In this document: positions 14,143 through 30,012 of the stretch, one piece after another
How positions within the stretch are numbered: position 1 is the stretch's first letter
Layout of the letters: the number at the start of each line of letters is the position of its first letter
Origin: an uncultured Gammaproteobacteria bacterium
GTDB taxonomy: Bacteria > Cyanobacteriota > Vampirovibrionia > JBFMGH01
Reading direction: 5' to 3'
Assembly (NCBI GenBank): GCA_964517135.1
Contig: CAZFBA010000004.1
Coordinates: forward strand, 68,360-132,359
Length of the DNA: 64,000 bases
Position numbers and translations under genes: made by a program
The notes under the pieces: generated by a model
The model's input: only the letters and a program-made list of their open reading frames with translations
Database searches by the model: none
What the model was told of the DNA's origin: nothing

Positions 14143-15213
14143 TTATCCTATACTAACTTTTTCTATATGTTGTAATTCAAGGTTGCTATCTGCATTAGAG
14201 GATGAAGAAACTTGTTTATTAAGTGTTGTAATAATGCTTTTACGTTTTCTTCTAAGCAGCATGTCTGTAAAAGCTTCCAGTCTAGTTATAAAGCCAGCTT
14301 CACCAGTATGTTCATCAATTGTCAGGTTTAAAACAGGCTTTTTAGCTCTTTTTGCCTTTCTGGTAATTCGCTCAATCATAAGTGAATCAGGGCCGCAGCC
14401 AAAGGCAGTCATAGTAATAATGCCGTCAATATTATCATCATACATATAGTGTCCGGCAACACCTGTAACTTCAGTCTCATTAGCCCAGTATAAAACAGCC
14501 CCAAGTTTTTCGATACCTGCAAATTGATCTTCACGTTTAACTGAATCAGGCACTATAGCATTTGCACCAAGGGCATTAAGTTTCTTAACCAGCCTCATAC
14601 TAAAGTAATTATCATAAATGTTATATGCATGAGAGCATATAACAACATTAATTGGTTTATCAGAAGGCAGTGCACCCGCATCAGGTTTATTACCTGTGGC
14701 AACTGCCAGTGCTGTTTCATAGTAATAACCGGCCTGCATCAGATCCATAAATTTATTATGGCATGCCCAGCCAGCTTTTGAAGCAGCTTTGATTTGTTTT
14801 TTATTTGTAATACCAAGAGGTTTTACTGAATCATAAAGATATTCATGTAACCCCTGGTGCTTTTCAGATTTATCAAGTGTTGGTTCTACTAGCAAGAAGT
14901 CTTTTCTGACAACATTTCTTACTAAATCAGGCAGCCCTCTTAATTTAGAGCAGTTATATATCTTGAAAGCCACAGATTGAATGCTTGGAGAATAAATAGC
15001 ATCAACGTTTTTATCTACCAGATCCAGAACGTGACCAATATATATCTTAACAGGCAGGCAGGTTTCAGGTACTACAAGTGCACTGCCCCTGCTAACCATC
15101 TTTTTATTTGTTTTTCCGGATAGAATCACCTCAATACCCAGGTCATTAAAGAATCCGTACCAGAAAGGGTAGTAAAGATAATACCCCAGAGAACGTGGAA
15201 TACCTATGTGCAT
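14143..15213 (-). CDS. Acyl-CoA dehydratase activase-related protein (DUF2229-like; PlsA reductase-domain-like)
   Basis: IGIPRSLGYYLYYPFW..FF..LG, CLPVK, CSKLRGLPD, FGCGPDS, DEHTGEAGFITRLEAF. Confidence 0.85.
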   Translation of the reverse strand: MHIGIPRSLGYYLYYPFWYGFFNDLGIEVILSGKTNKKMVSRGSALVVPETCLPVKIYIGHVLDLVDKNVDAIYSPSIQSVAFKIYNCSKLRGLPDLVRNVVRKDFLLVEPTLDKSEKHQGLHEYLYDSVKPLGITNKKQIKAASKAGWACHNKFMDLMQAGYYYETALAVATGNKPDAGALPSDKPINVVICSHAYNIYDNYFSMRLVKKLNALGANAIVPDSVKREDQFAGIEKLGAVLYWANETEVTGVAGHYMYDDNIDGIITMTAFGCGPDSLMIERITRKAKRAKKPVLNLTIDEHTGEAGFITRLEAFTDMLLRRKRKSIITTLNKQVSSSSNADSNLELQHIEKVSIG

Positions 15214-16349
15214 AGAGCAAGCTCCTTTTGGGTGGGTTTATAGTACTTATTACGTCTTCTTCTAATAAGATCGACAAAGGCTTCCAGACGTGTAATAAGG
15301 CCAGCCTTACCGGTATACTCATCCATTACGAGGCTAAGAACGGGTATATCCTCATTTTTACTTACATGTGGCAAAATAGATTGAGAAACTATTTCAGGGG
15401 TACAGTTAAATGGCCCTAGATGAACAACACCATCGATGCGCTTTTTGGAAGCGTATACAGCATCACCAATGCTTTCAATGCAGTCACCGCCAATGGCTCT
15501 ATTCATATAGTTTGCAGCATACATTGTTGATCTGTCTCTATGAGACATTTTTCTATAGAGAAATCTTGGCAGCAAAGCATTATTGGTCCAGTCGCTAAGC
15601 ATAACCTGTCTGTCTACTTCACAGCCAAGGTAGCCAAGCTCTTTTTCTATTTCCATATTGGTAAATGGATCCAGCAGAACAAAGAATTCTCCTGTCAGAT
15701 GAACCTGTAAAATATCTCTATCAGGGTCAATCAGCACTTTATCCATTCTGTTAAGAGTTTTTTGAACAGTTTCTCTAATCATGCTGACGCTATTAGCCCT
15801 ATCAATAAGCCTGCGCCCCCTGTTATAGAGTCTTTCGGCTTCTCCTCGTTTGATTTCTCTGGGCCTGATTTGAAAAAGTTTTCTCTCTATAATATCCAGT
15901 GCATCAAACTTGGCAAAGCCAAGACGGGTTGCTCTTACCAGGTCAACAATATTACAACCACCGCTTGCTTCTGCAAACTTAGTTGTAACTTCTTTTAACT
16001 TACCCTTATAGAGGTCAAAGATAATCATATCAAACTCATAACCAAGATCTCTTAGCTTTGCTTCAATGTTACCGGCGTAATTACCAAGGCGGCAGGTACC
16101 GGGAGCCTGAAACATAATTATCGTGTTTGCGCCACGTTCAAGGGCTTGTATGAAGTTACCGAGAATGATTTTATATGGCAGGCAGACGGTTTCTACACTA
16201 TGTCTTGTGCCAAGAGTCAGTGTTTCTTTGTTGTTATAAGGAGGTAAGTGTATCTTAGCCCCCATATGCCTGAGCATACCTGCAACTGGAACTGCAAGAT
16301 TGCCCATCTGTGGGAATGTTACCAGTCGTTCTTGTTCTTTTTTAAGCAT
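15204..16349 (-). CDS. 2-hydroxyacyl-CoA dehydratase / 'CoA protein activase'-related subunit (PlsR-like), paralog 1
   Basis: FPQMG, CLPYK, CRLGNY, GEFFVLLDPF, PFNCTPE, AGLITRLEAFVD; clear paralog of 12966..14135. Confidence 0.82.
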   Translation of the reverse strand: MLKKEQERLVTFPQMGNLAVPVAGMLRHMGAKIHLPPYNNKETLTLGTRHSVETVCLPYKIILGNFIQALERGANTIIMFQAPGTCRLGNYAGNIEAKLRDLGYEFDMIIFDLYKGKLKEVTTKFAEASGGCNIVDLVRATRLGFAKFDALDIIERKLFQIRPREIKRGEAERLYNRGRRLIDRANSVSMIRETVQKTLNRMDKVLIDPDRDILQVHLTGEFFVLLDPFTNMEIEKELGYLGCEVDRQVMLSDWTNNALLPRFLYRKMSHRDRSTMYAANYMNRAIGGDCIESIGDAVYASKKRIDGVVHLGPFNCTPEIVSQSILPHVSKNEDIPVLSLVMDEYTGKAGLITRLEAFVDLIRRRRNKYYKPTQKELALCT

Positions 16350-16380
16350 AATATAGATAACTCCAAATTAAACGAGCAAT

Positions 16381-16587
16381 TTAGCTGCTGACTAACTCTA
16401 GATATGCTTTTGGGCCTCCAATAGAAGCTTTTTGAGGACAAACCCTTTCGCAGGTCTGACAGTCAACGCAGTCATTAGCATTAATCTGGTATTTATTATC
16501 TTCTGTTTTATATATAGCGTCTGTCGGGCAGAGCGGAGCACATGTTCCGCAGGCTGTGCAGAGTTCTTGATTAATTTGATGCGGCAT
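16381..16587 (-). CDS. 2[4Fe-4S] ferredoxin
   Basis: Two CxxCxxCxxxCP motifs; SD AGGAG. Confidence 0.92.
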   Translation of the reverse strand: MPHQINQELCTACGTCAPLCPTDAIYKTEDNKYQINANDCVDCQTCERVCPQKASIGGPKAYLELVSS

Positions 16588-16601
16588 TTTCTACTCCTTT
16601 A

Positions 16602-18236
16602 CTAAACTTTAGAAAGTTCCATTTCTTCAATATCTTCAGTAGATTCAACATCACCTTCATCCACCGGGTCAGCAGAAAGTTTTTCAAGTGCTGTCAGATC
16701 TTTGCCACACTGGCAGCCGCCTTCTAGCTCTTCACATCCACCGTGTTTGTCGCCGTGTGGTTTTTTAGTACTACAGAGTACGACACGGTCGTGATACCAT
16801 TCTCCTGGCAGCGGGAACAGTGTCATAAAGTAGTCTTTAACCCAGTTTTCATCCATAATTTTAGCAACATCATGTGAATATTTGTCGATAGCTTCAGTTA
16901 ATTCAGGTTTTACGAGGTAATCATCAGCGCCTGGATGGGTTGGATATGGTTTAAATTTCTTATAATATCCTCTCAATACCCATGGACGATCAACGATCAT
17001 ACAGGGTCTCATCATATTGCCATCATACGGTGCCCCTTTTCTGATTGCCTGGAAGAATGGGGACTTCAGGGCATCTGTAATAGTGCAATCTTTGATGTTG
17101 TGTGTAGCAAGGTGAACAAATGTACATGGTTCTACGTCACCTGCCGCATTAATATGAATATATTGTCTACCGCCAGCTATACATCCCATCATTTCAGGGC
17201 CATCACCCCAGAAATCAACGGTCATCATTGGCAGTGTATTTCTTGCGTTATAAACGTTCTGTTTAATATATTCTCTCTGTTTTGCATCAGGTATAAGTTC
17301 AGGGTTAGGGCTATTACCCACCGGAACATAGTGAAAAACCCATGTCCAGAGGGAACCTTTATCTGATAGCCATTTCATAAACTTGTCGCTGACAACTTCT
17401 TCAGAGTTCTGTCTGGTAGCTGTAAGAGATGCACCCCAGAATATGCCGGCTTTTGTGAGTTTATCCATTTTTTCTGAAAGCATTTTGAAGCAACCTTCAC
17501 CTCTGATGGCGTCTGTAGATTTTTCCCAGCCAGCCAGACTTAGCATTGGGGCGACATTTCCGAGTTGTCTGAGTTTTTCGATGTTTTTATCTGTTAAGAG
17601 TGAGCCGTTAGTAAAGACCAGAAAGATGCAGTCATCATATTTTTTGGCCAGTTCAAAGAATTCCATTCGGCAGAAAGGTTCACCGCCAACAATTGGCAGT
17701 ATGTGTATGCCGTGTTCATCTCTTGCTTCGCCTAATATTCTGTCCCATTCTTCGATGGGCAGGTCTCTGACTTTGCTCTGATCATATTCTGAAGCCCAGC
17801 AGCCAACGCAGTTAAAGTTGCATTTTTCTGTAATACTTGCCAGCAAGACTGTTGGCGGATAAAAACCGTGTTTATCAAAATATTGAGCTCTTTTCCTCAG
17901 GTTATCTCCATAATATCCGTGTAAGAAGAAATTTGCCAGAAATTTATTTCTGCAATTAGGGTCCAGTGTGTCGATAATCTTTTGCCACCAGTGCAGGTGT
18001 GCATGGTCTGTTTCAAAGAGCCATCTCATTCTGCGTGCGTGACGTACGCCTCCCTCTGAGTGGGCAATTTTTTCAAACATTTTTGTCAGCATGATCAGGT
18101 TTTTCTTGCTGGATGTTGAAACAAAGTTCAAAAACTGGTTTATAACAAAGTTCTGGCCTTTTGTTTTTAGAAAGTCAATGTATTTTGAGCCGGTTCTCTT
18201 TTTCCACATTTGTTCCTGGGGTAATACTCTAAGCAT
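16602..18236 (-). CDS. Radical SAM protein with SPASM/twitch-type C-terminal region
   Basis: CNFNCVGC motif, GGEPF, FTNG, GCIAGG..YIHIN..GDVEPC, RPC; extra Cys-rich acidic tail. Confidence 0.9.
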   Translation of the reverse strand: MLRVLPQEQMWKKRTGSKYIDFLKTKGQNFVINQFLNFVSTSSKKNLIMLTKMFEKIAHSEGGVRHARRMRWLFETDHAHLHWWQKIIDTLDPNCRNKFLANFFLHGYYGDNLRKRAQYFDKHGFYPPTVLLASITEKCNFNCVGCWASEYDQSKVRDLPIEEWDRILGEARDEHGIHILPIVGGEPFCRMEFFELAKKYDDCIFLVFTNGSLLTDKNIEKLRQLGNVAPMLSLAGWEKSTDAIRGEGCFKMLSEKMDKLTKAGIFWGASLTATRQNSEEVVSDKFMKWLSDKGSLWTWVFHYVPVGNSPNPELIPDAKQREYIKQNVYNARNTLPMMTVDFWGDGPEMMGCIAGGRQYIHINAAGDVEPCTFVHLATHNIKDCTITDALKSPFFQAIRKGAPYDGNMMRPCMIVDRPWVLRGYYKKFKPYPTHPGADDYLVKPELTEAIDKYSHDVAKIMDENWVKDYFMTLFPLPGEWYHDRVVLCSTKKPHGDKHGGCEELEGGCQCGKDLTALEKLSADPVDEGDVESTEDIEEMELSKV

Positions 18237-18759
18237 ATTTACTTCCCTTTATACTGTGTACATAACTAATAATATATTAAAGCTAAAAAACTTTATGCAA
18301 ATTCTTTATATATCTAATTCTTCCTCCGTACCTTATTGCTTTCTCTCGTTATTGTGGGTGATAATAGCTATTTTAATATCATTTTACTCAACAAATACTT
18401 ATACTATATGTTTCTGCATAATACCTTATTTAAAATTTATCGTACAACAAATTTTATGTTTTTTACATAAAAATATGTAAAAACCCTGTCTTATTTATAT
18501 TTATGTTAAGAAATTTAACCCAATATTAACCATGGCTACATGTTTACGGTTATGAAGATACAGAGATTCTGAAGACTTACAGGTTTAAGGTTCTTGAAAT
18601 ATTTTTGGTTAAAGCTGTTACATAAACACAATCTTGATATTCGTCGTAAAAGGTTAACTTTGCCTGATAGCCATAAATACCCGCAAAAAGAATAAATCTT
18701 TCATTATGTTGTATTGATCTTTAATAGATGAAATTACCCAGTAAATCTAAATGCATTGG

Positions 18760-19300
18760 CTCAAGATTTTTTCGTTATATATTGATTATAATAGGTGTAT
18801 AGCCTAATTAACAGTCATTCGTTTTTTCTGGTATTTCTATTACCTTGCAAAAGAGAGTTTTAGAGTTTTTAAGGTACTGAATAGTTTTAAAAAACTTGAC
18901 AGGTATTTTACTTAAGCAACAGAAAGTGTTTAATTTTTGCCTAATGGAATTTAAGGTTTTTTAAAATCTGCTATGTGCCTCTTAGAAGGTATTAACAGTT
19001 AATCAGAGAAGAAAGGATTCAAATAATCTCATATTTGCATTAACAAAATATCATCTAACACTGCGTTATCCGTAACTTAAAACTTAGGAAATTTAAGAGA
19101 GACTGGAATCACACCCCCTGCTTCCATCAACTCTCTTACATTGAAGCAATTCAGGCCAGGCTTAATGAGTATTTAGAATCCCAAATTTGCTCTTCTGGCC
19201 AAACTTAATAAAATATAGGTTTAAAAGAAAAAAGAAAGGAGAAAAATAACTCATCTAACAGCTAACACAGGTATTAACGGGTCGGTTAAAAAAGAGGAGA
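18760..19300 (+). promoter_or_regulatory. Promoter and long structured leader, copy A
   Basis: TATAAT at 18787-18792; sequence blocks shared with 20393-20920; hairpins at 19095-19137 and about 19154-19200. Confidence 0.6.
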
Positions 19301-19307
19301 GAGATCT

Positions 19308-20138
19308 ATGACAGCATTTAGTGCTCAAATGCACCAGCACCAATTGAATCTGATCAAGCAGATGGGTAAATATCAAAATAGTATCGCAGAATACAACTTT
19401 AATAAGTTAATCAGGTACTACAAAGATGCTATTAACTCAGCTCAAACGTCAGATGAAGCCAGAGGTATAGCTCAAGCGCTGGAAGGTGTTCTGGCCCAAA
19501 GAGGTCAGGGGCTCGCCGACGTTCAGGGACTTAATACTGATAAACTTACCGGCAATCAGGCAGGCCTCGAAGGGTTGGATCCTGGAAAGGCCGCAAAGCA
19601 AGCCCGTAAAGAACAGTATAAGCCAATGTTTAAAGATCTTGAAGCCGAGTTTAATGTCGCCAGCAATAAAGATGGTGACTGGGCTAAAGCCGCCAAAGAG
19701 AATGAAAATGTACGTATACTAGACAAAAATGGCCAGGATGTCACCCAGACCTTCAATGGTGACAAGTTAAAAGGCTATACGCTTGAGATTAATTCTCAAA
19801 AGTATGGCAAGGTTCAAATTCAGCCCGGCGGAGATGGCAATATTAACGGCGGCGACGACAAAATATTAATGGTTGGCGGTCAGGCCGCAGCCGGAAATAT
19901 GATGGCTGGCCTCCAGGGTATTAATAACCCCACTCAACAGGCTGGCTTATTAAACCCGCTTGCAGGCATTATGGGCCTTAACCCCACTGAACAGGCCGCA
20001 GCCGAAGCTAATCAATATGCTATGCAGCCAGGCATGTTCTCTGAAGCACAGATCAAAAGTCTCATTGCCGCAATCCTGAATCAATCACTTGCTTCTATTG
20101 AACAGAAAGAATATCTTCAACAGTTCAATGTTGCCTGA
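19308..20138 (+). CDS. Gln/Asn-rich hypothetical protein, paralog A
   Basis: SD GAGGAGAG; N- and C-termini nearly identical to 21788..22678; no signal peptide. Confidence 0.85.
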   Translation: MTAFSAQMHQHQLNLIKQMGKYQNSIAEYNFNKLIRYYKDAINSAQTSDEARGIAQALEGVLAQRGQGLADVQGLNTDKLTGNQAGLEGLDPGKAAKQARKEQYKPMFKDLEAEFNVASNKDGDWAKAAKENENVRILDKNGQDVTQTFNGDKLKGYTLEINSQKYGKVQIQPGGDGNINGGDDKILMVGGQAAAGNMMAGLQGINNPTQQAGLLNPLAGIMGLNPTEQAAAEANQYAMQPGMFSEAQIKSLIAAILNQSLASIEQKEYLQQFNVA

Positions 20139-20215
20139 TCGTAGCCTGCCCATAGCGTATATTTCCATATAAGCACTGTTAGAAATACTTCAGGCAACAA
20201 AAACAAGAAGGAACA

Positions 20216-20248
20216 GGGTTAAGGGCTTGCCTGTCAGGCCTTTAACCC
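20216..20248 (+). terminator. Hairpin, possible terminator or processing site
   Basis: GGGTTAAGGGCTT...AGGCCTTTAACCC stem; weak U-tract. Confidence 0.5.
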
Positions 20249-20392
20249 CTCCGGTTTAACAAAATTCTATGCTGTTGCTAAAAAACTGTTAACTTAACTG
20301 AAATCCAGTCACTGTAACTCTTTACTGATCTAGCTAAGTGATTTTACACAGATAAACTTGAGTGAACCTGTCTATCTGGTACCACCAAATAA

Positions 20393-20920
20393 CTCAAGAA
20401 TTTCACTGTATATATTATGTATAATGATTGTAAATAAACAACATCCCTGACAAGATAATTGTTCTGGTATTTCTTTAACCTTATTAGAGAGAGAATTAGA
20501 GTTTTTATGGTACTGAAAGTTTTGAAAGCATTATCAGGTGCGTCTATTAAGTGACAGTTAGTTTTTATCTATTAACCTAAACTGTTTAAGCTAGTTTTAA
20601 CGCTTAAAAATTATGCAAAAAGGTAATTTAACCTGCATCAAAATTCATTTTCATAATGCTTTTCAAAATACTTAATTTAATGCACGACTCTCAACATCGT
20701 CTAAATATGCGTAAAATCAGTTATTATTCACGAAGTATCTTGAGAGAGAATGGAATACCTCCTGTTCCATGCCCGCTCTCTTTCATTAACACAATGAAGA
20801 CTAAATATTGTGCGAGGTTTGAACATTAAGAGGAGTGTAAAAGATGTCATCTACAGTATTTAACCCGGGCTAGCTCCTTTAACTGAACTAATAATTCAGT
20901 ATTTAGTCTAATGACTATAT
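20393..20920 (+). promoter_or_regulatory. Promoter and long structured leader, copy B
   Basis: TATAAT at 20420-20425; homologous to 18760-19140; hairpin 20742-20781, stem 20799-20810/20897-20908. Confidence 0.6.
20844..20873 (+). CDS. Candidate 9-aa leader peptide MSSTVFNPG
   Basis: SD AGAGGAG 8 nt before ATG; the SD can pair with CTCCT immediately after the stop. Confidence 0.3.
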   Translation: MSSTVFNPG

Positions 20921-20929
20921 AAAAATCTA

Positions 20930-21436
20930 GTGACAAAGAGGAGAGAAAACGTGATAAGGGATCATCTTTACAACTACGGCATTGAAGACTCAGAAGATAA
21001 GCTGAACTTTATCAACAGAAACATTGCAAAAAACATTATGACACTTGCTGTAAATATGCTTGATGAATCCAAATTGAATAAAGTTCAAAGCATGCTTTTA
21101 AGTCTAACCAGCTCAGAGCTCAGATCACTAAAAAATTACCTTGATTATCAAAAATATCGCTGTAAAGCTTTTTTGAATACTCAAGAGTATCGCATCATAA
21201 AAGAGATATCAAAAATTGTTCTGTATTCCAGACCTCAGGACCCCTATCTTAAAGAAATTTTAGATGAATATAATGCAAACCTGTCTTTTATAGAAGAATT
21301 GAAAGGAAAAACAACCCAGACAGACAACCCCAAAACACTAAACAAGCTCTATAAAACCATGGATGCCATCAACAAAAGGAATACGGAACTCATTGAAGAG
21401 GTTAACAACTACAAAAAAAGAAAGGAGGATTCATAG
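20930..21436 (+). CDS. Hypothetical helical / coiled-coil protein
   Basis: ORF; likely start is GTG at 20952 behind SD GAGGAGAG. Confidence 0.7.
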   Translation: MTKRRENVIRDHLYNYGIEDSEDKLNFINRNIAKNIMTLAVNMLDESKLNKVQSMLLSLTSSELRSLKNYLDYQKYRCKAFLNTQEYRIIKEISKIVLYSRPQDPYLKEILDEYNANLSFIEELKGKTTQTDNPKTLNKLYKTMDAINKRNTELIEEVNNYKKRKEDS

Positions 21437-21562
21437 ACGAAAACCCCTTTTAAATGTTTACTCTTAAAGATTGAAAGGAAATAATACTTTTTATTTACAA
21501 AACAGAGAGGAGACTAACAACTTACAAAATCTCTTTATTCATATCCCGAGGAGGTGTCTTTA

Positions 21563-21733
21563 ATGCAAAATATTGAAACCTTAATGAAAGAACTAAATCT
21601 TGGCGACGAAATCATCTCAAATACACTTTTAAAGATTGATTTCATCTGCACCAAAAACGGTTACAGAGAGGATGTAAGAAATCTGCAGGCTTTAACCCTC
21701 ACCGGCAACGGCGACGGTAACGGAAATAACTAA
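21563..21733 (+). CDS. Small 56-aa protein not in the ORF track (MQNIETLMKELNLG...GNGDGNGNN)
   Basis: Very strong SD GAGGAGGTG 6 nt before ATG; fills the gap between co-directional genes. Confidence 0.65.
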   Translation: MQNIETLMKELNLGDEIISNTLLKIDFICTKNGYREDVRNLQALTLTGNGDGNGNN

Positions 21734-21787
21734 CCTTAAAGCATTTTAAACATCCTAACAGGTCAGTTAAAGAAGAGGAGAGAGAAA

Positions 21788-22678
21788 ATGACAGCATTTT
21801 CAGCTCAATTGCATCAGCACCAGTTAAATTTGATACAGCAAATGGGTAAATATCAAAACAGTGTAGCTGACTACAACTTCCAGAAGCTTATCAGATACTA
21901 TAAAGATGCAATAAATTCAGCGCAAACCTCACAGGAAGCAAGAGGACTGGCAGAATCACTTCAGGGTGTATTAGCCCAGAAAGGCCAGGGCCTTGCCGAT
22001 GTACAGGGTTTAAATACCAATCTGCTTAACGGAAACCAAAATCAGGCTAATCCGAATCAGGCTAACCCTATAGCAGGGAAGGCTGATGCCGGCAAGCAAA
22101 AAGGCAGCGAAGAAGACAAAAAGATCATTGCAGACCTCAGTCAGGAATATGGCATAGATGTTAAAAAAGCAGGCACCACAAAAGACTGGCTGGAAAAAGC
22201 TAAAACTGATCAAAATGTCAGAGTTCTTGATAATACTGGCAAAGATGTCACTGCTGAACGTGAAGGCAGAATCAAAAAAGGTGATATACTTGAAGTAAAT
22301 TCAAAACAACACGGTTTGGTAAGGATTTCTGTCGGCGGCGACGGTGAAATCAATGGCGGAGACGATAAAGTTATTATGAAAGGCGGCCAGGCTGCTGCAG
22401 GAAACATGATGGATGGTCTCAATCAGATTAACAACGTCCCGGGTCAGCAACAGGCCAACCCCGCACAACCAAACGCTGTTAATAACCTTGCTCAAGCTCT
22501 TGGTATTACACCTGATCAGGCTGTTCAAAACCAGTTAGCCATGAATCCGGATGCAACCAACCAGCAAGCTCTGTTTACTGAAGCTCAGATAAAAAGCCTG
22601 ATTGCTGCTATTTTGAATCAGTCATTGTCTGCTATTGAACAGAGACAATATATGCAACAAATGCAACAAGTTTTTTAA
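21788..22678 (+). CDS. Gln/Asn-rich hypothetical protein, paralog B
   Basis: MTAFSAQ.HQHQLNLI.QMGKYQNS N-terminus, GGDG.INGGDDK core and EAQIKSLIAAILNQSL C-terminus shared with 19308..20138. Confidence 0.85.
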   Translation: MTAFSAQLHQHQLNLIQQMGKYQNSVADYNFQKLIRYYKDAINSAQTSQEARGLAESLQGVLAQKGQGLADVQGLNTNLLNGNQNQANPNQANPIAGKADAGKQKGSEEDKKIIADLSQEYGIDVKKAGTTKDWLEKAKTDQNVRVLDNTGKDVTAEREGRIKKGDILEVNSKQHGLVRISVGGDGEINGGDDKVIMKGGQAAAGNMMDGLNQINNVPGQQQANPAQPNAVNNLAQALGITPDQAVQNQLAMNPDATNQQALFTEAQIKSLIAAILNQSLSAIEQRQYMQQMQQVF

Positions 22679-22693
22679 GCTTTAGAAACCTTA

Positions 22694-22878
22694 TATAAGA
22701 GATCAGTGCATAACTTAAAAAAATCGATTTTCAAACCCAGATCCCGCCCACCCTAAAGGAAGGCATTGGGTCTCACTCACAGGCTATGCCTGCTCGTTCA
22801 ACCCATATATTAAATTTATATTTTTTGAAAATCGAAAACAATAAATTTGTCATTCTGGTTATGCATCAGTATTTATAA
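22694..22878. mobile_element. MITE-like non-coding element, copy 1
   Basis: About 185 bp; imperfect terminal IR (TGCATAAC / GTTATGCA), inner IR TCGATTTTCAAA / TTTGAAAATCGA; second copy at 52907-53095. Confidence 0.75.
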
Positions 22879-23021
22879 GAGAGTTTACTAAAATCTAAAA
22901 ACTATTTATACCTGAATCAGGCGTATTTATATATATATATCAGGTATCCTCTGTCAGGCTGATAGTCAGGCTCTGTAAACTGTAATCATTTTAGTAAAAC
23001 TATTAACAGAGGAGAGATTCT

Positions 23022-24008
23022 ATGGCATCATCAACCCAGGTTATTAATGCTCTTCAGCAAAGCCCTACGGGCATGAAGCTTCTTCAGGAAGCTCAAAGAA
23101 GAGGTGTACAGATTAATTTTGCACAAAATAACGGTGATAATGTACTCGGACAGTATAATCCGAATAATAATACAATAACTGTAGAGAATAACGACCTTGA
23201 AACAATGGTAGAAACGTTAGCGCATGAACTTGTACATGCGACGACCCCAGAAAATGGAAATTCTCTCAACGAAGAATATTCTGCTTTTGTCATAGGTGAA
23301 CAGGTAGCAAAAGAAGCCGGTGTCGACAATAACCCGCATAGTGCTGATTTCTGGAAAAATCACGTAGCCAATTCATATTCAGGTCTGGCAAAGGACAACG
23401 GTATCTTTGGTGCACTGAATGCACTTGGTATTGCAGCAAATGATGCACAGGCAGCAATAAAACCTGCCGCTCAGAATGCAGCAGCCCCAACATATGGTCA
23501 GGCAGCAGCGGCAGCAGCAAATATAACCCCGCAACAGGCTGCAACAGACCCCTTTACGTCTGCTATGAATCAGGCTAATAGCATTATTGGAGGACCTCAG
23601 GCCGCAGCGGCACCGGCTGCTACTGCTGATCAGGCTAACCCCTTGAACCAGGCTGACCCGCTGGCTGGTGGTAATCAACAGCTCATGCAGTTTATTATGA
23701 TGATCGTTCAGATGCTAATGCAGATGTTTGGCCAGATGATGGGCGGTATGGGCCAGCAACAAGACCCTCTGATGCCACAAACTAACCCGTTAAACCCGTT
23801 AAATCCGGTTACTCCGCAGGCTACACCTCAGGCTGCTCCTGCACAAAGACAGGTGTGTGCAAAGTGTGGCGGAGCTGGATGTGACGTTTGTGGTGGTAAA
23901 GGCTATATTCAGCAGGCTCAGGCCCCTCAGCATATGATAAATCCGCAGTATCAAATAGAAAACAAGCAACAACCATTTATGATGACGGCGTTTAATATTA
24001 CTGCATAA
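23022..24008 (+). CDS. Zincin-like (HExxH) metallopeptidase domain with Gln/Ala/Met-rich region and C4 zinc finger
   Basis: GQYNPNNNTITV...TLAHELVHA...NEEYSAF; CAKCGGAGCDVCGGKG; no signal peptide. Confidence 0.8.
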   Translation: MASSTQVINALQQSPTGMKLLQEAQRRGVQINFAQNNGDNVLGQYNPNNNTITVENNDLETMVETLAHELVHATTPENGNSLNEEYSAFVIGEQVAKEAGVDNNPHSADFWKNHVANSYSGLAKDNGIFGALNALGIAANDAQAAIKPAAQNAAAPTYGQAAAAAANITPQQAATDPFTSAMNQANSIIGGPQAAAAPAATADQANPLNQADPLAGGNQQLMQFIMMIVQMLMQMFGQMMGGMGQQQDPLMPQTNPLNPLNPVTPQATPQAAPAQRQVCAKCGGAGCDVCGGKGYIQQAQAPQHMINPQYQIENKQQPFMMTAFNITA

Positions 24009-24124
24009 GTATATACAGATTCCCTTTACTCCTATCTGCTCTATATCTCTAGCTCTCCACTTGCTTAACAGGCACGTAAGTATCCTTGTGCCCCCACCCA
24101 AAAAAAAACTCATTCCCATCTTCG

Positions 24125-24150
24125 ACTCCTGCTACAGGAGTTTTTCTTTT
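24125..24150 (+). terminator. Intrinsic terminator
   Basis: ACTCCTG-CTA-CAGGAGT followed by TTTTCTTTT. Confidence 0.75.
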
Positions 24151-24279
24151 GCCTGTAATCCATAAGTTTTGCTTCTGGCTATGTTTGCGTTTTTTAAATC
24201 CATCTTGAGATTTCAGACCTTGCTCATCAGTTGATTTTAAAACTGAGATTCTACCATTTGTTTGCATAATATAAACGGC

Positions 24280-24942
24280 TTATCTCTGGTTGTTGGTTCT
24301 TGATAGTAAATTTTTAAACATTGTTTTGCACCAATCGTATGTGCAATTAACCTGTGATAGCCCCTTGCTGGTTTTTTGTATACACATTCCAGGAGAAGAA
24401 TATATGAGCATACTACCATCAGGCTCAAAGAGCATTTTCTTTTCATCTGAAAACTCTATTACTGCTGATTTCAAATTGCCCTCAGGGTATGAATACGCAT
24501 AATAACCTACAGGATATTTCTTTGAAGAGATTGTTGTAACAAGTTTGAGCTTACTTTCAGGATTAGTATTGCGGTAATCATAAGTATAAATAAACCTACT
24601 ATCTTTAACCTGATATTGATAATTTGGCAGGCAGGTTAAAAGGCCCTCACTGGTTTGTTTTGTTGTATTGGCAGTAGACATACCATTACAATGTGCTATA
24701 TTACTTTTAGAATCATTATCTCCTGGAGATAAATGATATATGTTTGCTGTTCTGGGAACTTTGTTTATGGTTTGTTCTTTGACAATACTTACAAAACGAA
24801 GAAAATCCTCTTTAATCTCTGCGAAAATACAATTATAAGATGTAACGAGCAGACAAATAAGTGTTATAACCCCTGTGTATACAATCTTTTTATTCATATT
24901 CCCCTCACCTGAGATCAACTCAAAACTTAAAAATATATACAT
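24280..24942 (-). CDS. Hypothetical exported protein
   Basis: Likely start MNKKIV (ATG at 24897, SD GAGGGG); N-terminal hydrophobic signal. Confidence 0.65.
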   Translation of the reverse strand: MYIFLSFELISGEGNMNKKIVYTGVITLICLLVTSYNCIFAEIKEDFLRFVSIVKEQTINKVPRTANIYHLSPGDNDSKSNIAHCNGMSTANTTKQTSEGLLTCLPNYQYQVKDSRFIYTYDYRNTNPESKLKLVTTISSKKYPVGYYAYSYPEGNLKSAVIEFSDEKKMLFEPDGSMLIYSSPGMCIQKTSKGLSQVNCTYDWCKTMFKNLLSRTNNQR

Positions 24943-25010
24943 TTAAATTTTATATTAAATGGTAAAAAAATTAAACAGGGGACTTGCCCGGAATAGTTTA
25001 AAACTCTTCA

Positions 25011-25094
25011 TTATATAATCAATGTCATAAGTAATCAGATTTCAGAAAATTGGAGACTTTTAGAATTGTTTAATTTTTTATGTCGTTTAGTATA
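25011..25094. repeat. Dispersed ~84-bp intergenic repeat, copy 1
   Basis: TATAATCAA.GTCATAAGTAATCAGATTTCAGAAAAT..GGAGACTTTTAGAATTGTTTAATTTTTTATGT.GTTTAGTATA; copies at 29248 and 33990. Confidence 0.85.
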
Positions 25095-25302
25095 GTTACA
25101 AATGATTAGCATTTTAAACCCTCTAGAATAAATAAACTATAAATTGATGAATAATTCGGGTTAATGAATCGGTAAAATATAATCCAAAATATCAATTTTT
25201 ATACTAAAATAACCTTTAAAGAAAACTTCATTGACAAAAATCTAATTAATCACCAGTCAGATTAAATCACGATCAATACAAATAAAAGAAAAGGAAACAA
25301 AA

Positions 25303-25653
25303 ATGAAGGGCATCAACATTCAAAAAATGCTTAAACAGGCACAGAAAATGCAAAACGCTATGAACACAGTGCAGGAAGAACTCTCAACAGTAGAAGTAGA
25401 AGGGTCAGCAGGTGGCGGCATAGTAACAGTAAAGTATAACGGCAAAGGTGAATTTCATTCTATCAAATTAACAGCTGATGCAATAAACCCTGAAAACCCT
25501 GAGAGTGTATCAGAAGAAGACATTGAAGCATTAGAAGATCTAATTACCAGTGCGATTAAAGATGCTTCCAGCAAAGCCAATCAGCTTGCACAGGATAAAA
25601 TGTCATCCGTTACTGGTGGAATGGATCTCAACCTGCCACCCGGTCTGTTTTAA
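25303..25653 (+). CDS. ybaB: YbaB/EbfC nucleoid-associated protein
   Basis: KQAQKMQ, VEGSAGGGIVTV, LEDLITSA; directly upstream of recR. Confidence 0.93.
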   Translation: MKGINIQKMLKQAQKMQNAMNTVQEELSTVEVEGSAGGGIVTVKYNGKGEFHSIKLTADAINPENPESVSEEDIEALEDLITSAIKDASSKANQLAQDKMSSVTGGMDLNLPPGLF

Positions 25654-25656
25654 ACT

Positions 25657-26250
25657 ATGGAATACACAAAACCTCTCGCACGTTTAATTGAAGAATTTCA
25701 AAAATTCCCAGGTGTGGGGCCAAAATCAGCCCAGAGGATGGCTTTTTTTCTCTTAAAAAAAAGCGATGTCGAAGTAAAACAATTTGCTGAATCCATTCTT
25801 GAAGCAAAAACACTTATAACTTATTGCCCTGTATGCTATAATATGAGTTCTCAACAACCCTGCGAAATTTGCTCAAACAAAAAACGTGACCGGGAAATCA
25901 TCTGTGTTGTTGCTGATACGAAAGACCTTATAGCCCTTGAAAGAACCAGAGAATATAGAGGGCTTTATCACGTTTTACAGGGTTTAATCTCGCCACTTGA
26001 AGGTATAGGGCCAGATAGTCTGCGTGTTTCTGAACTGCTAAGGAGGCTGGAAGACGAAGTTCAAGAGGTTATTCTGGCAATAAATAATTCAGTTGAAGGT
26101 GACGCAACTGTTTTATATATTCATAAACTTATAAAACCTTTTGGCAAAAAAGTTACTCGAATTGCTTTTGGTCTGCCTGTAGGAAGCGATCTTGAATATG
26201 CAGACGAAATAACACTTACAAAGGCACTCGAAGGAAGACATGAGATTTAA
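25657..26250 (+). CDS. recR: Recombination mediator RecR
   Basis: PGVGPKSAQR, C4 zinc finger, Toprim YHVL.G.ISP, TRIAFGLPVG. Confidence 0.97.
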   Translation: MEYTKPLARLIEEFQKFPGVGPKSAQRMAFFLLKKSDVEVKQFAESILEAKTLITYCPVCYNMSSQQPCEICSNKKRDREIICVVADTKDLIALERTREYRGLYHVLQGLISPLEGIGPDSLRVSELLRRLEDEVQEVILAINNSVEGDATVLYIHKLIKPFGKKVTRIAFGLPVGSDLEYADEITLTKALEGRHEI

Positions 26251-26674
26251 TTCAATGGAAATTATTATCTCTAAAGATAAAATAACCCGAGAACATCTAA
26301 AAAGCCTTTATAATGAAAATTCTATAGAAATGTCAGGCAATTATGACATTGAAAAAGTATATAATGCCATAAAAAATTCTTATCTAGTTGCAGGTATCTG
26401 GAACAGTGATGTATTAAAAGGCTTTTGCCGTATTATTTCTGACGGAATTTACTTTGCCAGAATACAAGAACTTATACTTTCACCGGATATAAGAGAAACA
26501 GATGACATTATTACAGAATTGTTAAACGCAGTATTCAACGAATGTAAAGGTATAAAAAGTTTTCATATGAACCCGGGAGTTTACGAAAAAAAAGAAATTT
26601 ATACACGCAAACACAGCTCTCTTACACCCCGGCTGCGCAAAATATACTGGTCAATTCACGAAGATGAGTTTTAA
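26240..26674 (+). CDS. GNAT-like protein, divergent
   Basis: AIKNSY...GFCRIISDG..ARIQELIL.P resembles GNAT acetyltransferases; acetyl-CoA motif degenerate. Confidence 0.6.
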   Translation: MRFNSMEIIISKDKITREHLKSLYNENSIEMSGNYDIEKVYNAIKNSYLVAGIWNSDVLKGFCRIISDGIYFARIQELILSPDIRETDDIITELLNAVFNECKGIKSFHMNPGVYEKKEIYTRKHSSLTPRLRKIYWSIHEDEF

Positions 26675-26847
26675 CAAAAAGCTTTTCCATAGCAATAAGC
26701 TCCTTCAAGGGCCCAGGAAGAGCCTTTTGAAGCCCACTGAGTAGCTGCTTTAAATCCTTCTTTTGTGTTTGGAAATTCCTGAAAACGGTTGTCCTGATAG
26801 CACGCAAGGGTATTTTTGTGACAATCTACGCCTACAAATTTTTTCAT
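26671..26847 (-). pseudogene. Truncated IS110-family transposase, N-terminal DEDD domain fragment (58 aa)
   Basis: Manual translation MKKFVGVDCHKNTLACYQDNRFQEFPNTKEGFKAATQWASKGSSWALEGAYCYGKAFC*; VG(V)D.HK, F.NT..G, W..EG...YG motifs; SD AGGAGG. Confidence 0.8.
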
Positions 26848-27031
26848 TTTCGGTGTATCCTCCTATTGTTATGTAATTTTGATAGGTGTTTTAATGGACA
26901 ATCCTGTTTATAGTTGTTTCGACAGGTATTTCTTAAGTCTTATTAACTTCCTTTTATTATAGATTATCATTTTTTTATAGATAAACAGGCGGGAACTTGC
27001 TGCGACGAAGCCCGAAAAATCTCCTACAAAC

Positions 27032-27235
27032 AGATCCTTCGCTGCGCTAAGGATGACTCAAAAGTTCTAAAGAGACTAATAACTACCGGAGCGAACTTAG
27101 TTCGCTCCTGAGAGAGTTTTATTTCGGGACAATTCAGGTATTCAATAAACTATTATCATTGATAGGAAGGCTTTTAGTCTGACGTGATAATCCAGAATAA
27201 ACATTTGATAGATCCTTCGCTTCGTTCACAAAGAC
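27032..27235. repeat. Cluster of REP-like short repeats
   Basis: AGATCCTTCGCTGCGCTAAGGATGAC (27032-27057), AGATCCTTCGCTTCGTTCAC (about 27210), palindrome GGAGCGAACT-T-AGTTCGCTCC (27088-27108). Confidence 0.65.
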
Positions 27236-27353
27236 TTTTATGGCCTGTTGATTGCGATTCGATATCAGATTCAGTCCCTGTTTTTGCTGTAATCAGTAAT
27301 CAGAGGTTCTGGTAAGAATCCTGACTAAAAAAATGTGTTATCAATTTTTGGCT

Positions 27354-29123
27354 TTACTGTTGAAGTGTTCCAAGTTGACTATTCATATAACCACTTTGTG
27401 ACTGCATTTTACTGATTGCTTCTTCCATGGCAGCAAACTGCCTTTTAAGTTGCTCTTCTTTTTTATCAAGACTCTCAAGGGCTCTTGCAATGCTTTTATT
27501 CAGGTCTTTGATTTGATTATTTATAGCCTCATCCCGTGCTGCAAAGAAACCGTTAACACTATCGAGAGAGCCATCAGTAGTAGTTTTTAGTTTTTGCATA
27601 ACACCGGTAATATTTGTTGTTGTATTACCCAGAAACAGGTCTCTAACAGCCTCAGGATCCTGATTGAGCTTGTCAATAAAGGCATTTTTGTCAAATTGCA
27701 ATTTTTTTGGTGCATCCCCTTCCATGCCAACCTTACCAGTTGTAATTCCAACAGAAGCAAGAGATATAAGATCTGAATTTGCTACAAGATCAGTTACCTG
27801 TTGTCTCAGGTTATTTCTAAATCTAATCATTGCGTTATCACCGGCCAGAGCTCCTGTTTTAGAGTCTACCTGCTGGTCAATATAACTTATAACGCTGTTA
27901 AAATCATCAACAAACTTTTGTACTGCATCTACCAGTTTATCAGTATCCTGTTGAATAGAGATGGTTACATCGCTACCACCTGATGGTGCAATAAGTTTGA
28001 GTGTAACATCTTTAATACCGGTGACGGCGTCTGTTACAGTATTTGATGTACTTTCTATGATGGGGCCGCCGTTAATCTGGAAGGTGGCATTTTGTCCCAG
28101 TGTCTGGTATGCAAGCGAATCACCGGGCTGAATCATGTTTACGGCACTTAAGAAATTTGAAGTATCTCCTGGTGCACCTAATGTAATAGCTACTTTGCCC
28201 GGGTCTTTAGAAACAAACTCAATTTTATTGGTTCTTATGTTATATGTTGCTGTAACATTGGCATTGGCGTCACTATTAATCTTGTTCATCAGGCCTTCAA
28301 GGGTTGTTGAAGCGTCAATAGTAAATGTTGATCCGCCAATAGTCACTGTACCGGCAGTCACAGCTGTCTGAAGGTTTGCTGCGTTATCTGTGAGTGTTCC
28401 AGCTGTTTTAATAGCTGATAGCGGGTTTGCACTGAGGAGATCATCACCCACATATGTTCCTACGTCAAGCTGTGTAACAGCTAAGAAATTTGAGGTATCT
28501 CCATTAGAGCCAACGGTGATTGTTCCGGCTCCTAGATTCTGAAGTGTTACTATACCTCCGGCAATAGATGCATTAATCTGTCCACCAAATGCAGCATTAA
28601 TGTTTCCAAGCACAGCATCTACATCATCGCCACTATTAACAGTGATTTCCTGGGCATTGCCATCATAGTATACTGTGAATGTACCTGCTTTTCCTGCGCC
28701 ATTAGCCATATCACTAACCAGTGTAGTGCCATTAACAAGGTTTGCAACATTTCCTGTTGATGAGCCAGAGCCAAGACTTTCTGCTTTTGTTGCTGTAGCT
28801 ATGGTTAAAATGTTTAAATCAAGCGTTTGATTAGCTGCTTTTGATCCTGCAGTTGCGGTTGCGATGCTTTCATTTGATGAGGTGGTCTTTTTGGCCTTAA
28901 AAAGATCCATTGAGGTTGTGATATTACCGTCAGTTAATTTTTGTATAGAGCTATTAAGAGTTTTTACTCTTGTTTCAACATTATCGACATACGTTCTCGA
29001 TTTTGAAAGATCGCTTATACGCTGTTCCATCAAATCGATGGGACGTCTTTCAATTGCGAGCAACTGATCTATAATATCGTTTACCGGTAAACCTGATGCC
29101 AGACCACTGAAGGAAATACTCAT
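27354..29123 (-). CDS. fliD: Flagellar filament cap protein FliD (start reassigned to MSISFSG)
   Basis: ISFSGLASGL...IIDQLLAIER N-terminus; FVDDFNSV, GALAGD, LKRQFAAME..ISKMQSQ C-terminus. Confidence 0.93.
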   Translation of the reverse strand: MSISFSGLASGLPVNDIIDQLLAIERRPIDLMEQRISDLSKSRTYVDNVETRVKTLNSSIQKLTDGNITTSMDLFKAKKTTSSNESIATATAGSKAANQTLDLNILTIATATKAESLGSGSSTGNVANLVNGTTLVSDMANGAGKAGTFTVYYDGNAQEITVNSGDDVDAVLGNINAAFGGQINASIAGGIVTLQNLGAGTITVGSNGDTSNFLAVTQLDVGTYVGDDLLSANPLSAIKTAGTLTDNAANLQTAVTAGTVTIGGSTFTIDASTTLEGLMNKINSDANANVTATYNIRTNKIEFVSKDPGKVAITLGAPGDTSNFLSAVNMIQPGDSLAYQTLGQNATFQINGGPIIESTSNTVTDAVTGIKDVTLKLIAPSGGSDVTISIQQDTDKLVDAVQKFVDDFNSVISYIDQQVDSKTGALAGDNAMIRFRNNLRQQVTDLVANSDLISLASVGITTGKVGMEGDAPKKLQFDKNAFIDKLNQDPEAVRDLFLGNTTTNITGVMQKLKTTTDGSLDSVNGFFAARDEAINNQIKDLNKSIARALESLDKKEEQLKRQFAAMEEAISKMQSQSGYMNSQLGTLQQ

Positions 29124-29247
29124 AAGCTTATTTATCCCTGTTAATAGATGAAACCCTATTATTAATAATAAGATGTGTTGCAAGTATTATCATCCACTAG
29201 CTATAGTATTTATAATATTATGCCCGCACAGGTTACATTTTAAACGC

Positions 29248-29331
29248 TTATAATTAACGTCAAAAGTAATCAGATTTCAGAAAATCCTGGAGACTTTTAG
29301 AATTGTTTAATTTTTTATGTAGTTTAGTATA
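29248..29331. repeat. Dispersed ~84-bp intergenic repeat, copy 2
   Basis: Near-identical to 25011-25094. Confidence 0.85.
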
Positions 29332-29512
29332 ATTTTTAAGATTTTATCGCAGGTTTTGAGAAACCTGAAAATTTATTCTCATCATCATTTAAGATGATAT
29401 TAACACCAAACAAAACACTTCTTTAACTTTGAAAGTAAGATAAAGAGTAATTTAATTATTTTAGATACCAGCCAGATGTGAATTTAAACAAACTATTACC
29501 GGGTAACCTTCG

Positions 29513-29788
29513 TTACCGGAGTTTTTCGAGAACCTTTGTAATGAAGTTTTCAGAAAATTGAACTTTATCTCCAAATTCTTCATAAAGAAAATGCCTGACT
29601 ACTTCTCTTTGAAATGCTTCAGGTTCTTTGCGGCAATCAATAAGCATATTGGCAAAGATATCTTTTTCAGAGACTTTGCCAGCACTAATTGCATTGGTTA
29701 CATTTTTAGAGTTTGTTTTTTGCACACTGGAATTTCCAATTTTGGTTTCAACCACGATGGTCTCTTCCCCCCTCAAGAAAGTACTCAA
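29513..29788 (-). CDS. Small hypothetical protein upstream of fliD
   Basis: ORF co-directional with fliD; start uncertain (GTG behind GAGGGG plausible). Confidence 0.55.
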   Translation of the reverse strand: MSTFLRGEETIVVETKIGNSSVQKTNSKNVTNAISAGKVSEKDIFANMLIDCRKEPEAFQREVVRHFLYEEFGDKVQFSENFITKVLEKLR

Positions 29789-30012
29789 TATTTGTATGCT
29801 ACCTATTATAGTTAGGAATATAGTTTTATGCTACTAATAATAAAATTCTCAAGCAAAAAAAGTGATAGCAAAAGCGATTTTGTTTTACAAAGCGTTACAA
29901 TTTATACTTTAATAGAATATTAAATGCTTTTATTTAAAAAATTACTTTTACCGAACAATAATTTAGTTTTATAATATCTAAACAAATAATAAATTGTATA
30001 AATATAAAGGGT

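Follow-up and report, generated by a model that had tools for sequence, protein, structure and literature searches.

Paralogous leaders of a multi-copy gene cassette carry a candidate RNA hairpin with an anti-Shine-Dalgarno-like loop

Two similar non-coding regions, leaders A and B, lie in the window analysed here, a stretch of 64,000 nucleotides (nt; 36.8% GC) that forms part of contig C4 of genome G000, and they are best explained as paralogous promoters, each followed by the long 5' leader of a lineage-specific, multi-copy gene cassette. Late in each leader the predicted transcript folds into a hairpin whose C-rich loop resembles the anti-Shine-Dalgarno (anti-SD) sequence of 16S rRNA, and, as far as DNA can tell, the case for a conserved RNA structure with such a loop is well founded. 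We regard it as a candidate lineage-specific cis-regulatory RNA, a new motif which would act, if at all, like known anti-SD hairpins. Tentatively, and with rather more doubt than conviction, we read the hairpin as a cis-acting translational control element that masks ribosome-binding sites. The G000 assembly (4.06 Mb in 78 contigs, 98.8% complete) encodes CsrA and about 20 flagellins and no photosynthetic reaction-centre gene was found in it, and we therefore take the organism to be a flagellated, non-photosynthetic relative of the cyanobacteria.

Leaders A and B are colinear, with 62% identity over 413 alignment columns (pairwise blastn expect value, E = 7e-25), and the duplicated blocks, promoters, boxes and hairpins that an earlier, sequence-only reading of this DNA had described are all present. 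Both leaders lie on the plus strand and begin with a predicted promoter made of an upstream box CTCAAGA (of the ACTCAAGA type in A), 20 nt and a TATAAT -10 box. In leader A this promoter occupies 18760-18792, with the -10 box at 18787-18792 and a predicted transcription start at about 18799; in leader B it occupies 20393-20425, with a predicted start at about 20432. From predicted start to first start codon the leaders would run for about 510-520 nt. Counted per 20 columns, 4-6 positions are identical right after the -10 box, 17-18 in a GA-rich stretch that we call block 1, 5-10 in the middle of the leader and 14-15 in the hairpin. Viewed by zone, identity is about 70% in the promoter and 20-30% past the -10 box; it reaches 70-90% between about +30 and +100, drops to 25-50% midway, and returns to 70-75% over a TCTAA..TGCGT box and the hairpin.

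Block 1 (18823-18891 in A and 20459-20527 in B, plus strand, about 60 nt 3' of the -10 box) reads TTCTGGTATTTCT..GAGAG..TAGAG..AAGGTACTGAA in leader A. The two copies align without gaps over 69 nt at 80% identity, have the pattern TTCTGGTATTTCT...GAGAG..TTAGAGTTTTTA.GGTACTGAA in common, and gave the sole significant second match in a BLAST search across the whole genome (83%, E = 1.6e-12). No fold shared by the two copies of block 1 was found (z = +0.71 and -0.56), a UACCUU/AAGGUA stem of copy A was rejected since it is disrupted in B, and the leaders folded as wholes are ordinary (z = -0.30 and -1.82). The TCTAA..TGCGT box follows at 19050-19066 in A (ATCATCTAAC..TGCGT) and at 20696-20712 in B (ATCGTCTAAATATGCGT), both on the plus strand.

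This blocky conservation is not the uniform decay that the sequence-only reading would have expected of a neutral duplication, and the genes behind the two leaders make the point more sharply. The paralogous genes for proteins of 276 and 296 amino acids (aa) are identical at 23 of 70 fourfold-degenerate sites; Nei-Gojobori synonymous divergence (dS) has no computable value over their full length, and over the 85 conserved codons at the N-terminus it is 4.1. Six further paralog pairs have 17/55, 32/70, 30/79, 24/72, 22/64 and 4/16 such sites identical, giving a range of 25-46% across all pairs. Because synonymous sites in the adjacent genes are saturated, neutral DNA of this age should not align at all, and thus the leader blocks are not what neutral decay would leave. 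It appears that selection preserved them; gene conversion in very short tracts is a less likely cause.

The earlier view of two copies was right about both of them and too narrow about the family, since G000 contains at least four hairpin leaders, namely A, B and one each on contigs C12 and C2. All four share a promoter of the form ACTCA(A/C/G)G-N19-20-TATAAT, a GA-rich block about 60 nt past the -10 box, CATCTAAC boxes and the hairpin, and in 4 of 4 the GAGAG..TAGAG core (from a GAGAG..TAGAG..CTGAA block) stands at a nearly constant distance from the -10 box. In a set of four leaders drawn from G000 and G001, ATCTAA and TCTAAC occur about 10 times as often as expected and GAGAGA about 37 times (20 observed against 0.54 expected). 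G001 represents a sister genus. The only other genome of the family of G000 is one assembled from a metagenome. The promoter layout extends to seven leaders, five in G000 (including one on C20) and two in G001, and the G001 leaders retain the promoter and part of block 1.

The hairpin module of leader A spans 19078-19156 on the plus strand and consists of a 5' flank (ACTTAGGAAATT), the hairpin proper at 19094-19138 and a 3' flank (CATTGAAGCAATTCAGGC). Its outer stem pairs UAAGAGAG with CUCUCUUA and its inner stem UGGAA with UUCCA, enclosing a loop at 19109-19121 that contains CCCCC; the predicted energy is -12.7 kcal/mol (z = -3.64), and none of 200 shuffled sequences was as stable. Hairpin B, at 20741-20783 on the plus strand, pairs GAGAGAG with CUCUCUU in the outer stem and AAUGGAAUA with UGUUCCAU in the inner one, and presents CCUCC as a 5-nt loop at 20758-20762 (-14.5 kcal/mol, z = -3.72, 1 of 200 shuffles as stable). 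The C12 and C2 hairpins have energies of -9.2 and -14.9 kcal/mol and z = -5.08 and -5.65, with 0 of 200 shuffles as stable in each case. We built a covariance model, R1, from the four copies with only the outer stem of 8 base pairs annotated. Searched against G000, R1 returns exactly these four copies at 82.5-94.6 bits (A at the upper end, B at the lower), and a scan of the cassette loci of both genera (28,657 nt) with filters off gave 18.4 bits for the next best match. That match (E = 0.2; L029:2960-3040, on G001 contig 291) falls on the ribosome-binding site and first codons of the gene for the 296-aa protein, AAGGAGAGA..AUG..CUCUUUUGCAUUACAUCAA, which hints, and no more than hints, at a duplicated translation-start region as a possible ancestor of the hairpin module.

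The sequence-only reading had also seen that stems are kept while loops and bulges differ, and this pattern holds over all four copies. In the alignment made by the model, the outer stem, with consensus AAGAG(A/U)G / C(U/A)CUCUU, is paired in 31 of 32 cells. It contains one two-sided change (AU to UA), giving AAGAGUG/CACUCUU in C2 and AAGAGAG/CUCUCUU in the others, and two one-sided changes to G-U. As inner stem, A and B have UGGAA/UUCCA, C12 has UAA/UUA, and C2 has nine pairs, UAAGAACUA/UAGUUUUUA, that include one G-U. Thus the apical parts cannot be aligned between copies, yet the helix is extended in each, and because these sequences differ and still pair we consider them a stronger argument than covariation in the outer stem. 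Furthermore, the two arms are 27, 29, 33 and 35 nt apart and the distance between hairpin and promoter varies by about 100 nt, variation that is more in keeping with an RNA hairpin than with a fixed DNA operator.

What the apical loops have in common is composition. Every one of them is G-free and C-rich, with ACCUCC(U) once or twice, or ACCCCCU in A, so that CCUCC stands in the loop of three of the four copies and CCCCC in that of A. The loops named by the sequence-only reading were TCACACCCCCTGC for A and TACCTCCTG for B. In our folds the 13-nt apical stretch of A, UCACACCCCCUGC, has two more bases paired and ACCCCCU left open, C12 has a loop of 27 nt with CCUCCCCC and CCUCC, and C2 has one of 16 nt with CCUCCC and CCUCC. 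In each of the four leaders CC[TC]CC occurs in the hairpin loop only, and in 4 of 4 minimum-energy folds the C-rich motif (CCUCC or CCCCC) is unpaired there.

The universal anti-SD sequence of 16S rRNA has CCUCC as its core (the 3' end of 16S rRNA was not found in the G000 assembly). For each loop, predicted pairing with the GGAG sites of its own operon was ranked against random genomic 21-mers. That every downstream gene uses a GAGGAG-type SD, as the sequence-only reading held, is borne out, with GAGGAG or a GGAGAGAG site at each cassette gene. Its further proposal that the loops are complementary to these sites stands well for B, moderately for C12 and C2, and poorly for A. Predicted duplexes of loop B have energies of -8.0 to -13.1 kcal/mol, within the top 0-2.6% of the random 21-mers; those of C2 have -6.2 to -10.3 kcal/mol (top 1.5-12.5%), those of C12 -6.1 to -9.6 kcal/mol (top 3.7-18%), and those of A -3.4 and -3.5 kcal/mol, at about the 35th percentile. 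The best predicted partner in both B and C2 is the GGAGG site of a small gene whose product ends in a GN-rich tail, and copy A has neither this gene nor a CCUCC loop, which is a single suggestive correlation. In addition, CUCUCUU in the 3' arm is complementary to GAGAGAG in the ribosome-binding sites, and the GA-rich 5' arm and block 1 resemble those sites.

If this complementarity is put to use, then the leader would be transcribed from the predicted promoter into the cassette, and the loop, with its 16S anti-SD core, would pair together with the CUCUCUU arm with the GGAG/GAGAGAG ribosome-binding sites of downstream cassette genes, either masking them or competing with 30S subunits. The default state would be set by rival pairing partners, namely the GA-rich 5' arm and block 1, and a three-way competition is possible. 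Conservation beyond the neutral level, a structure kept among the copies and the confinement of C-rich motifs to the loop are shown; that the promoter is used, which sites the loop would pair with and which way expression would change are what we infer. The position of the element suggests a 5' leader rather than a free-standing small RNA.

Several observations weigh against translational control by masking. Loop A pairs with GGAG no better than random DNA does, yet the flanks of hairpin A are among the best conserved; the energies of C12 and C2 reach only the top 1.5-18%, and since any CCUCC pairs with any GGAG, the complementarity is unspecific. The hairpin also lies 74-138 nt 5' of the first GGAG site in the four leaders, and 770 nt from its best partner in B. 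As to structure, four of the eight outer pairs are invariant and hence uninformative, and the covariation that the sequence-only reading had wanted checked, although it includes the compensatory AU-to-UA change, is not significant with four sequences, its score being equalled or exceeded in 118 of 500 shuffles. In absolute energy the reverse strand is as stable as the forward one (-15.4, -12.8, -11.6 and -12.0 against -12.7, -14.5, -9.2 and -14.9 kcal/mol); folding energy thus does not fix the strand, and we chose the plus strand from the direction of promoter and genes. The best conserved part of the module is its flanks, with ACTTAGGAAATTTAAGAG common to A, C12 and C2 (20-22 of 24 positions); the 5' flank and arm of hairpin A match those of C12 at 22 of 24 positions and those of C2 at 20 of 24, a likeness that could have come about by short-tract gene conversion. 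Finally, the hairpin was not found in the sister genus, despite the promoter and part of block 1 there. R1 had no match among the 150 of 3179 first-look candidates scored in G001, a hairpin pattern search gave none in G001, G145 and G113 (in G000 it recovered A, B and C2, skipping C12 because of two extra U residues), and the analogous leader regions of G001 contain no stable hairpin (z = +0.51, +0.93 and +0.10).

These points bear on other explanations. The hairpin could be a site at which a protein binds or cuts, such as a regulator that binds RNA and controls the cassette, or a ribonuclease acting on the long leader, with the C-rich loop as recognition motif. Copy A, which keeps its stem and flanks in spite of a CCCCC loop and poor GGAG pairing, speaks for this, as a loose need for a C-rich and G-free loop suits a protein; so do block 1 and the CATCTAAC boxes, which are conserved in sequence without a shared fold, as expected of protein sites, and control by an RNA-binding protein is used elsewhere in G000 (CsrA, with flagellin leaders that carry ACAAGGAUGUA and AAGGAG sites). 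No candidate protein for the hairpin has been identified, however; loops without GGA make CsrA itself unlikely, the cassette proteins match no RNA-binding family, and the best Foldseek match of the 161-aa cassette protein has E = 0.33. On balance we think a protein site rather unlikely. Another way to view the blocks is as DNA-level sites for a dedicated transcription factor or sigma factor, the inverted repeat being an operator and the RNA fold incidental. The ACTCA(A/C/G)G-N19-20-TATAAT box shared by seven leaders of two genera, the nearly fixed distance between block 1 and the -10 box in the four leaders despite unrelated intervening sequence, and the comparable folding of the reverse strand would all follow. 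Against this, the spacing of the arms and their distance from the promoter vary, and the inner stems have changed and still pair; among their pairs is a G-U in C2, to which a C-A mismatch would correspond on the opposite strand. As an account of the whole we consider a DNA-level role unlikely; taken by parts, it is likely for the promoter box, perhaps applies to block 1, and is unlikely for the hairpin.

Action in trans is a further possibility, in which the leader, or a processed 5' fragment ending at the hairpin, would reach the GGAG sites of paralogous cassettes and coordinate or exclude their expression. Near-identical extended GGAGAGAG ribosome-binding sites do recur at the cassettes on C4, C2, C12, C13 and C20. 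RsaA and RNAIII of Staphylococcus aureus and RoxS of Bacillus subtilis are described as regulatory RNAs with C-rich loops that pair with SD sites (PMC3961350, PMC2837412, PMC5419742), and loops with one or two unpaired CCUCC resemble their C-rich seeds; as in those RNAs, unpaired C-rich motifs sit in hairpin loops and, by prediction, complement GGAG-type sites, and RNAIII is in addition an mRNA with regulatory hairpins. Unlike those RNAs, the element here sits in the 5' leader of its own operon without a terminator, belongs to the phylum Cyanobacteriota, and has CCUCC rather than UCCC in its loop. No terminator-like site was called after the hairpin, whose tail, UUACAUU, lacks a U-run, and the element always precedes a cassette in the direction of that cassette, for which a role in cis is simpler; we regard action in trans as improbable. 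We give still less credence to its elaboration into dual-function RNAs, whose rRNA-mimicking ACCUCCU loop would silence the GGAGAGAG sites of sibling cassettes and so impose RNA-based mutual exclusion among putative secreted-protease cassettes. That the similarity has no function at all, being a duplication remnant homogenised by gene conversion between paralogous loci, strikes us as the least credible account. The cassettes are multi-copy, and gene conversion between multi-copy loci is common, but neighbouring synonymous sites are saturated, conserved blocks of 20-70 nt alternate with stretches that cannot be aligned, the four hairpins pair in their arms and have unrelated apical parts, and gene conversion would need tracts of about 25 nt that fall on the same spots at four loci.

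We compared the masking hairpin with known leader elements. Like the anti-SD sequences of riboswitches, RNA thermometers and attenuators, a pyrimidine stretch in the leader could mask a ribosome-binding site here, with a possible competition among GA-rich, CU-rich and GA-rich segments; in those systems, however, anti-SD and SD lie a few nt apart within one local fold, whereas here they are separated by 74-138 nt. A local SD-sequestering thermometer or riboswitch was set aside on this ground, the first GGAG being that far 3' of the loop in 4 of 4 leaders, and no ligand-binding or temperature-sensing fold is evident in the hairpin leaders. STAB-SD stabilisers are found in long 5' leaders such as that of cryIIIA of Bacillus thuringiensis. 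The likeness lies in a leader of about 500 nt before a highly specialised gene and in purine-rich, SD-like words far 5' of the start codon, and the difference in that the GA words here are (GA)n rather than GGAGG and hence complement the CUCUCUU arm, not the 16S anti-SD. Read on the minus strand the loop gives GGAGG, and this was rejected as an SD since by eye no conserved start codon or reading frame lies behind it.

Other known classes were likewise set aside. A scan of 18200-24200 called four terminator-like sites, none of them at 19094-19138 or 20741-20783, and the tails after hairpins A and B (UUACAUUGAAG and UUUCAUUAACA) have no U-run, so that an intrinsic terminator or attenuator was rejected. 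Rho-dependent attenuation was rejected because G000, at the completeness given above, has no match to PF07497 (Rho_RNA_bind), while a control search was positive in 9 of 14 reference genomes. The description of the RNA as unrecognised holds in that no Rfam family reaches its threshold in the regions searched: with Rfam 15, the one match in 15000-30000 of the window was to mir-1814, away from the hairpins and at 23.9 bits where 90 are required, and loci L162, L163, L164 and L030 gave only mir-246 (25.2 against 60, reverse strand) and RmaA (25.3 against 57).

Leader-based control by CsrA is known from flagellin genes of the hag/flaA type (PMC6529632, PMC4894983). G000 has CsrA, and several of its flagellin leaders carry ACAAGGAUGUA together with AAGGAG, which suggests that leader-based translational control is in use in this organism. 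Unlike leaders of that type, the four hairpins have no GGA in their loops, GGA being present only in the inner stem (A and B) or the 5' flank (A, C12 and C2), and we therefore regard a CsrA-binding leader as unlikely; the flagellin leaders of G000 itself do show canonical paired sites. In several flagellin leaders ACAAGGAUGUA or CAUGGAAGU is followed by GAUAAGGAGAUC. About 16 of the roughly 20 flagellin genes form a tandem array, and the csrA gene directly follows a 149-aa open reading frame (ORF), which we take to be FliW; the loci concerned are G000:C2:156000-176000 (L160) and G000:C1:58364-59124 (L161:2364-3124).

To our knowledge, though with no literature search directed at the question, regulatory RNAs of the non-photosynthetic relatives of cyanobacteria have not been described. 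What is offered is a compact and testable candidate, a hairpin of about 45-50 nt with the 16S anti-SD core in its loop, retained by four long leaders beside genes with saturated synonymous sites. If masking is correct, the hairpin would be a cis version of the C-rich-loop principle of the trans-acting RNAs of Firmicutes, and it would mark as co-regulated a set of orphan cassettes (161-aa helical protein, GN-tailed mini-protein, ~290-aa protein and M91-like metalloprotease) that share an unusual promoter. With the hairpin in one genome and the promoter and block 1 in two genera, the known range is narrow, and the organism is uncultured, which limits the impact.

The cassettes themselves were traced through the word GAGAGA and by tblastn with cassette proteins, giving paralogous copies on six further contigs of G000. 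Parts of the cassette thus occur at seven loci: C2:212099-213746, C12:11229-12756, C62:211-2300, C48:18382-19140, C20:28092-28331, C13:72275-73836 and 19308-24008 of the window. Their contents are a 161-aa helical protein, a protein of about 56-59 aa ending in (G/D)N repeats, one of about 280-300 aa with conserved ends, and a putative M91/DUF6782-like metalloprotease; no family or structural match was found for the first three. The ~290-aa gene also occurs at four loci of G001 and at one locus each in G145 and G113, and its protein family was present in 4 of 401 genomes sampled from the class (G000, G001 and two from another family). A second cassette subfamily (C62 and C48, with C169 and C22 of G001) has a different, short upstream region without a hairpin. 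That region carries a conserved element of its own, GCTAACAAT-N17-TTTTTTATATATACAGAGGATA, at about 1140-1190 on C62, at about 19500-19560 on the reverse strand of C48, and on C169 and C22.

Among wider searches for relatives, one of genome contigs gave two G001 contigs only, and a DNA search of 41 genomes (G000 and 40 relatives) gave G001 only, in coding parts only. The promoter pattern YTCARGA-N18-21-TATAAT proved too loose to mark a regulon (18 occurrences against 4 in the control for G000, 27 against 22 for G001). In metagenome contigs, a search from a protein alignment gave 594 pattern matches, none of them confirmed, and 114 loci with the block 1 DNA pattern were put down to chance in AT-rich DNA, having no cassette protein and no leader match longer than 34 nt. 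The word AGTTTTTAAAAACTGA in G001 was discarded as belonging to an unrelated repeat at contig ends, where an identical stretch of about 125 nt, unrelated to the leaders, ends five contigs and begins one (L031-L035 and L038); this stretch probably represents one end of a repeated mobile element. DNA of the window is present in sludge metagenomes, and all 20 listed runs that match 18700-22700 are DNA metagenomes. Contigs from four runs (X10, X16, X18 and X19) contain the leaders as the same strain, 18960 T>A in X19 being the sole difference, and their diverged relatives reach only part of the gene for the 296-aa protein (22100-22371), so that these contigs are uninformative for covariation.

Behind leader A stands an orphan gene for the 276-aa protein (19308-20138, plus strand), a paralog of 21788-22678 without a Pfam match, preceded by a ribosome-binding site, GAGGAGAGAGA, which together with the ATG covers 19294-19310 and is 90% identical over 30 nt to the site of the 296-aa gene. 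An imperfect, G+C-rich inverted repeat (GGGTTAAGGGC ... GGCCTTTAACCCC) at 20216-20249, about 80 nt past the stop codon and without a T-run, may mark the end of transcript A, though it is absent from the terminator scan calls. Leader B precedes the four genes of cassette B (20951-24008, plus strand), each with a GAGGAG-type site. The first most likely begins with GTG at 20951, not at 20930, and encodes the 161-aa helical protein (20951-21436); its AlphaFold model (predicted local distance difference test score 83.6) is a helical bundle, whose best Foldseek match in the PDB is the one given above. There follow ORFs for a 59-aa protein with the C-terminus GNGDGNGNN (21554-21733), for the 296-aa protein (21788-22678), which is 60% identical to the 276-aa protein, and for a 328-aa protein (23022-24008) with a weak DUF6782/Peptidase_M91 match. 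For the 161-, 59-, 276- and 296-aa proteins, Pfam and NCBIfam returned nothing except a single casE row below threshold, and no useful sequence match to the cassette proteins was found in the Atlas or the PDB.

Between hairpin and cassette, leader B has a GAGGAG site and a mini-ORF of nine codons (MSSTVFNPG, ATG at 20844; 20830-20873, plus strand). Leader C2 has one of ten codons at the matching place (G000:C2:~211716-211748), unrelated to it in sequence; both mini-ORFs have strong GGAG sites and lie 60-90 nt 3' of the hairpin. Copy A keeps the GGAG site (at about 19238) and is missing the start codon. A leader-peptide reading was rejected, as the mini-ORFs of B and C2 are unrelated and A and C12 have none. 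On the other side of leader A, and transcribed away from it, a radical SAM/SPASM enzyme of the peptide-maturase type is encoded at 16602-18236 on the minus strand; the products of two ORFs beyond it match domains of CoA-enzyme activase and 2-hydroxyglutaryl-CoA dehydratase weakly, either below the cut-off or in part.

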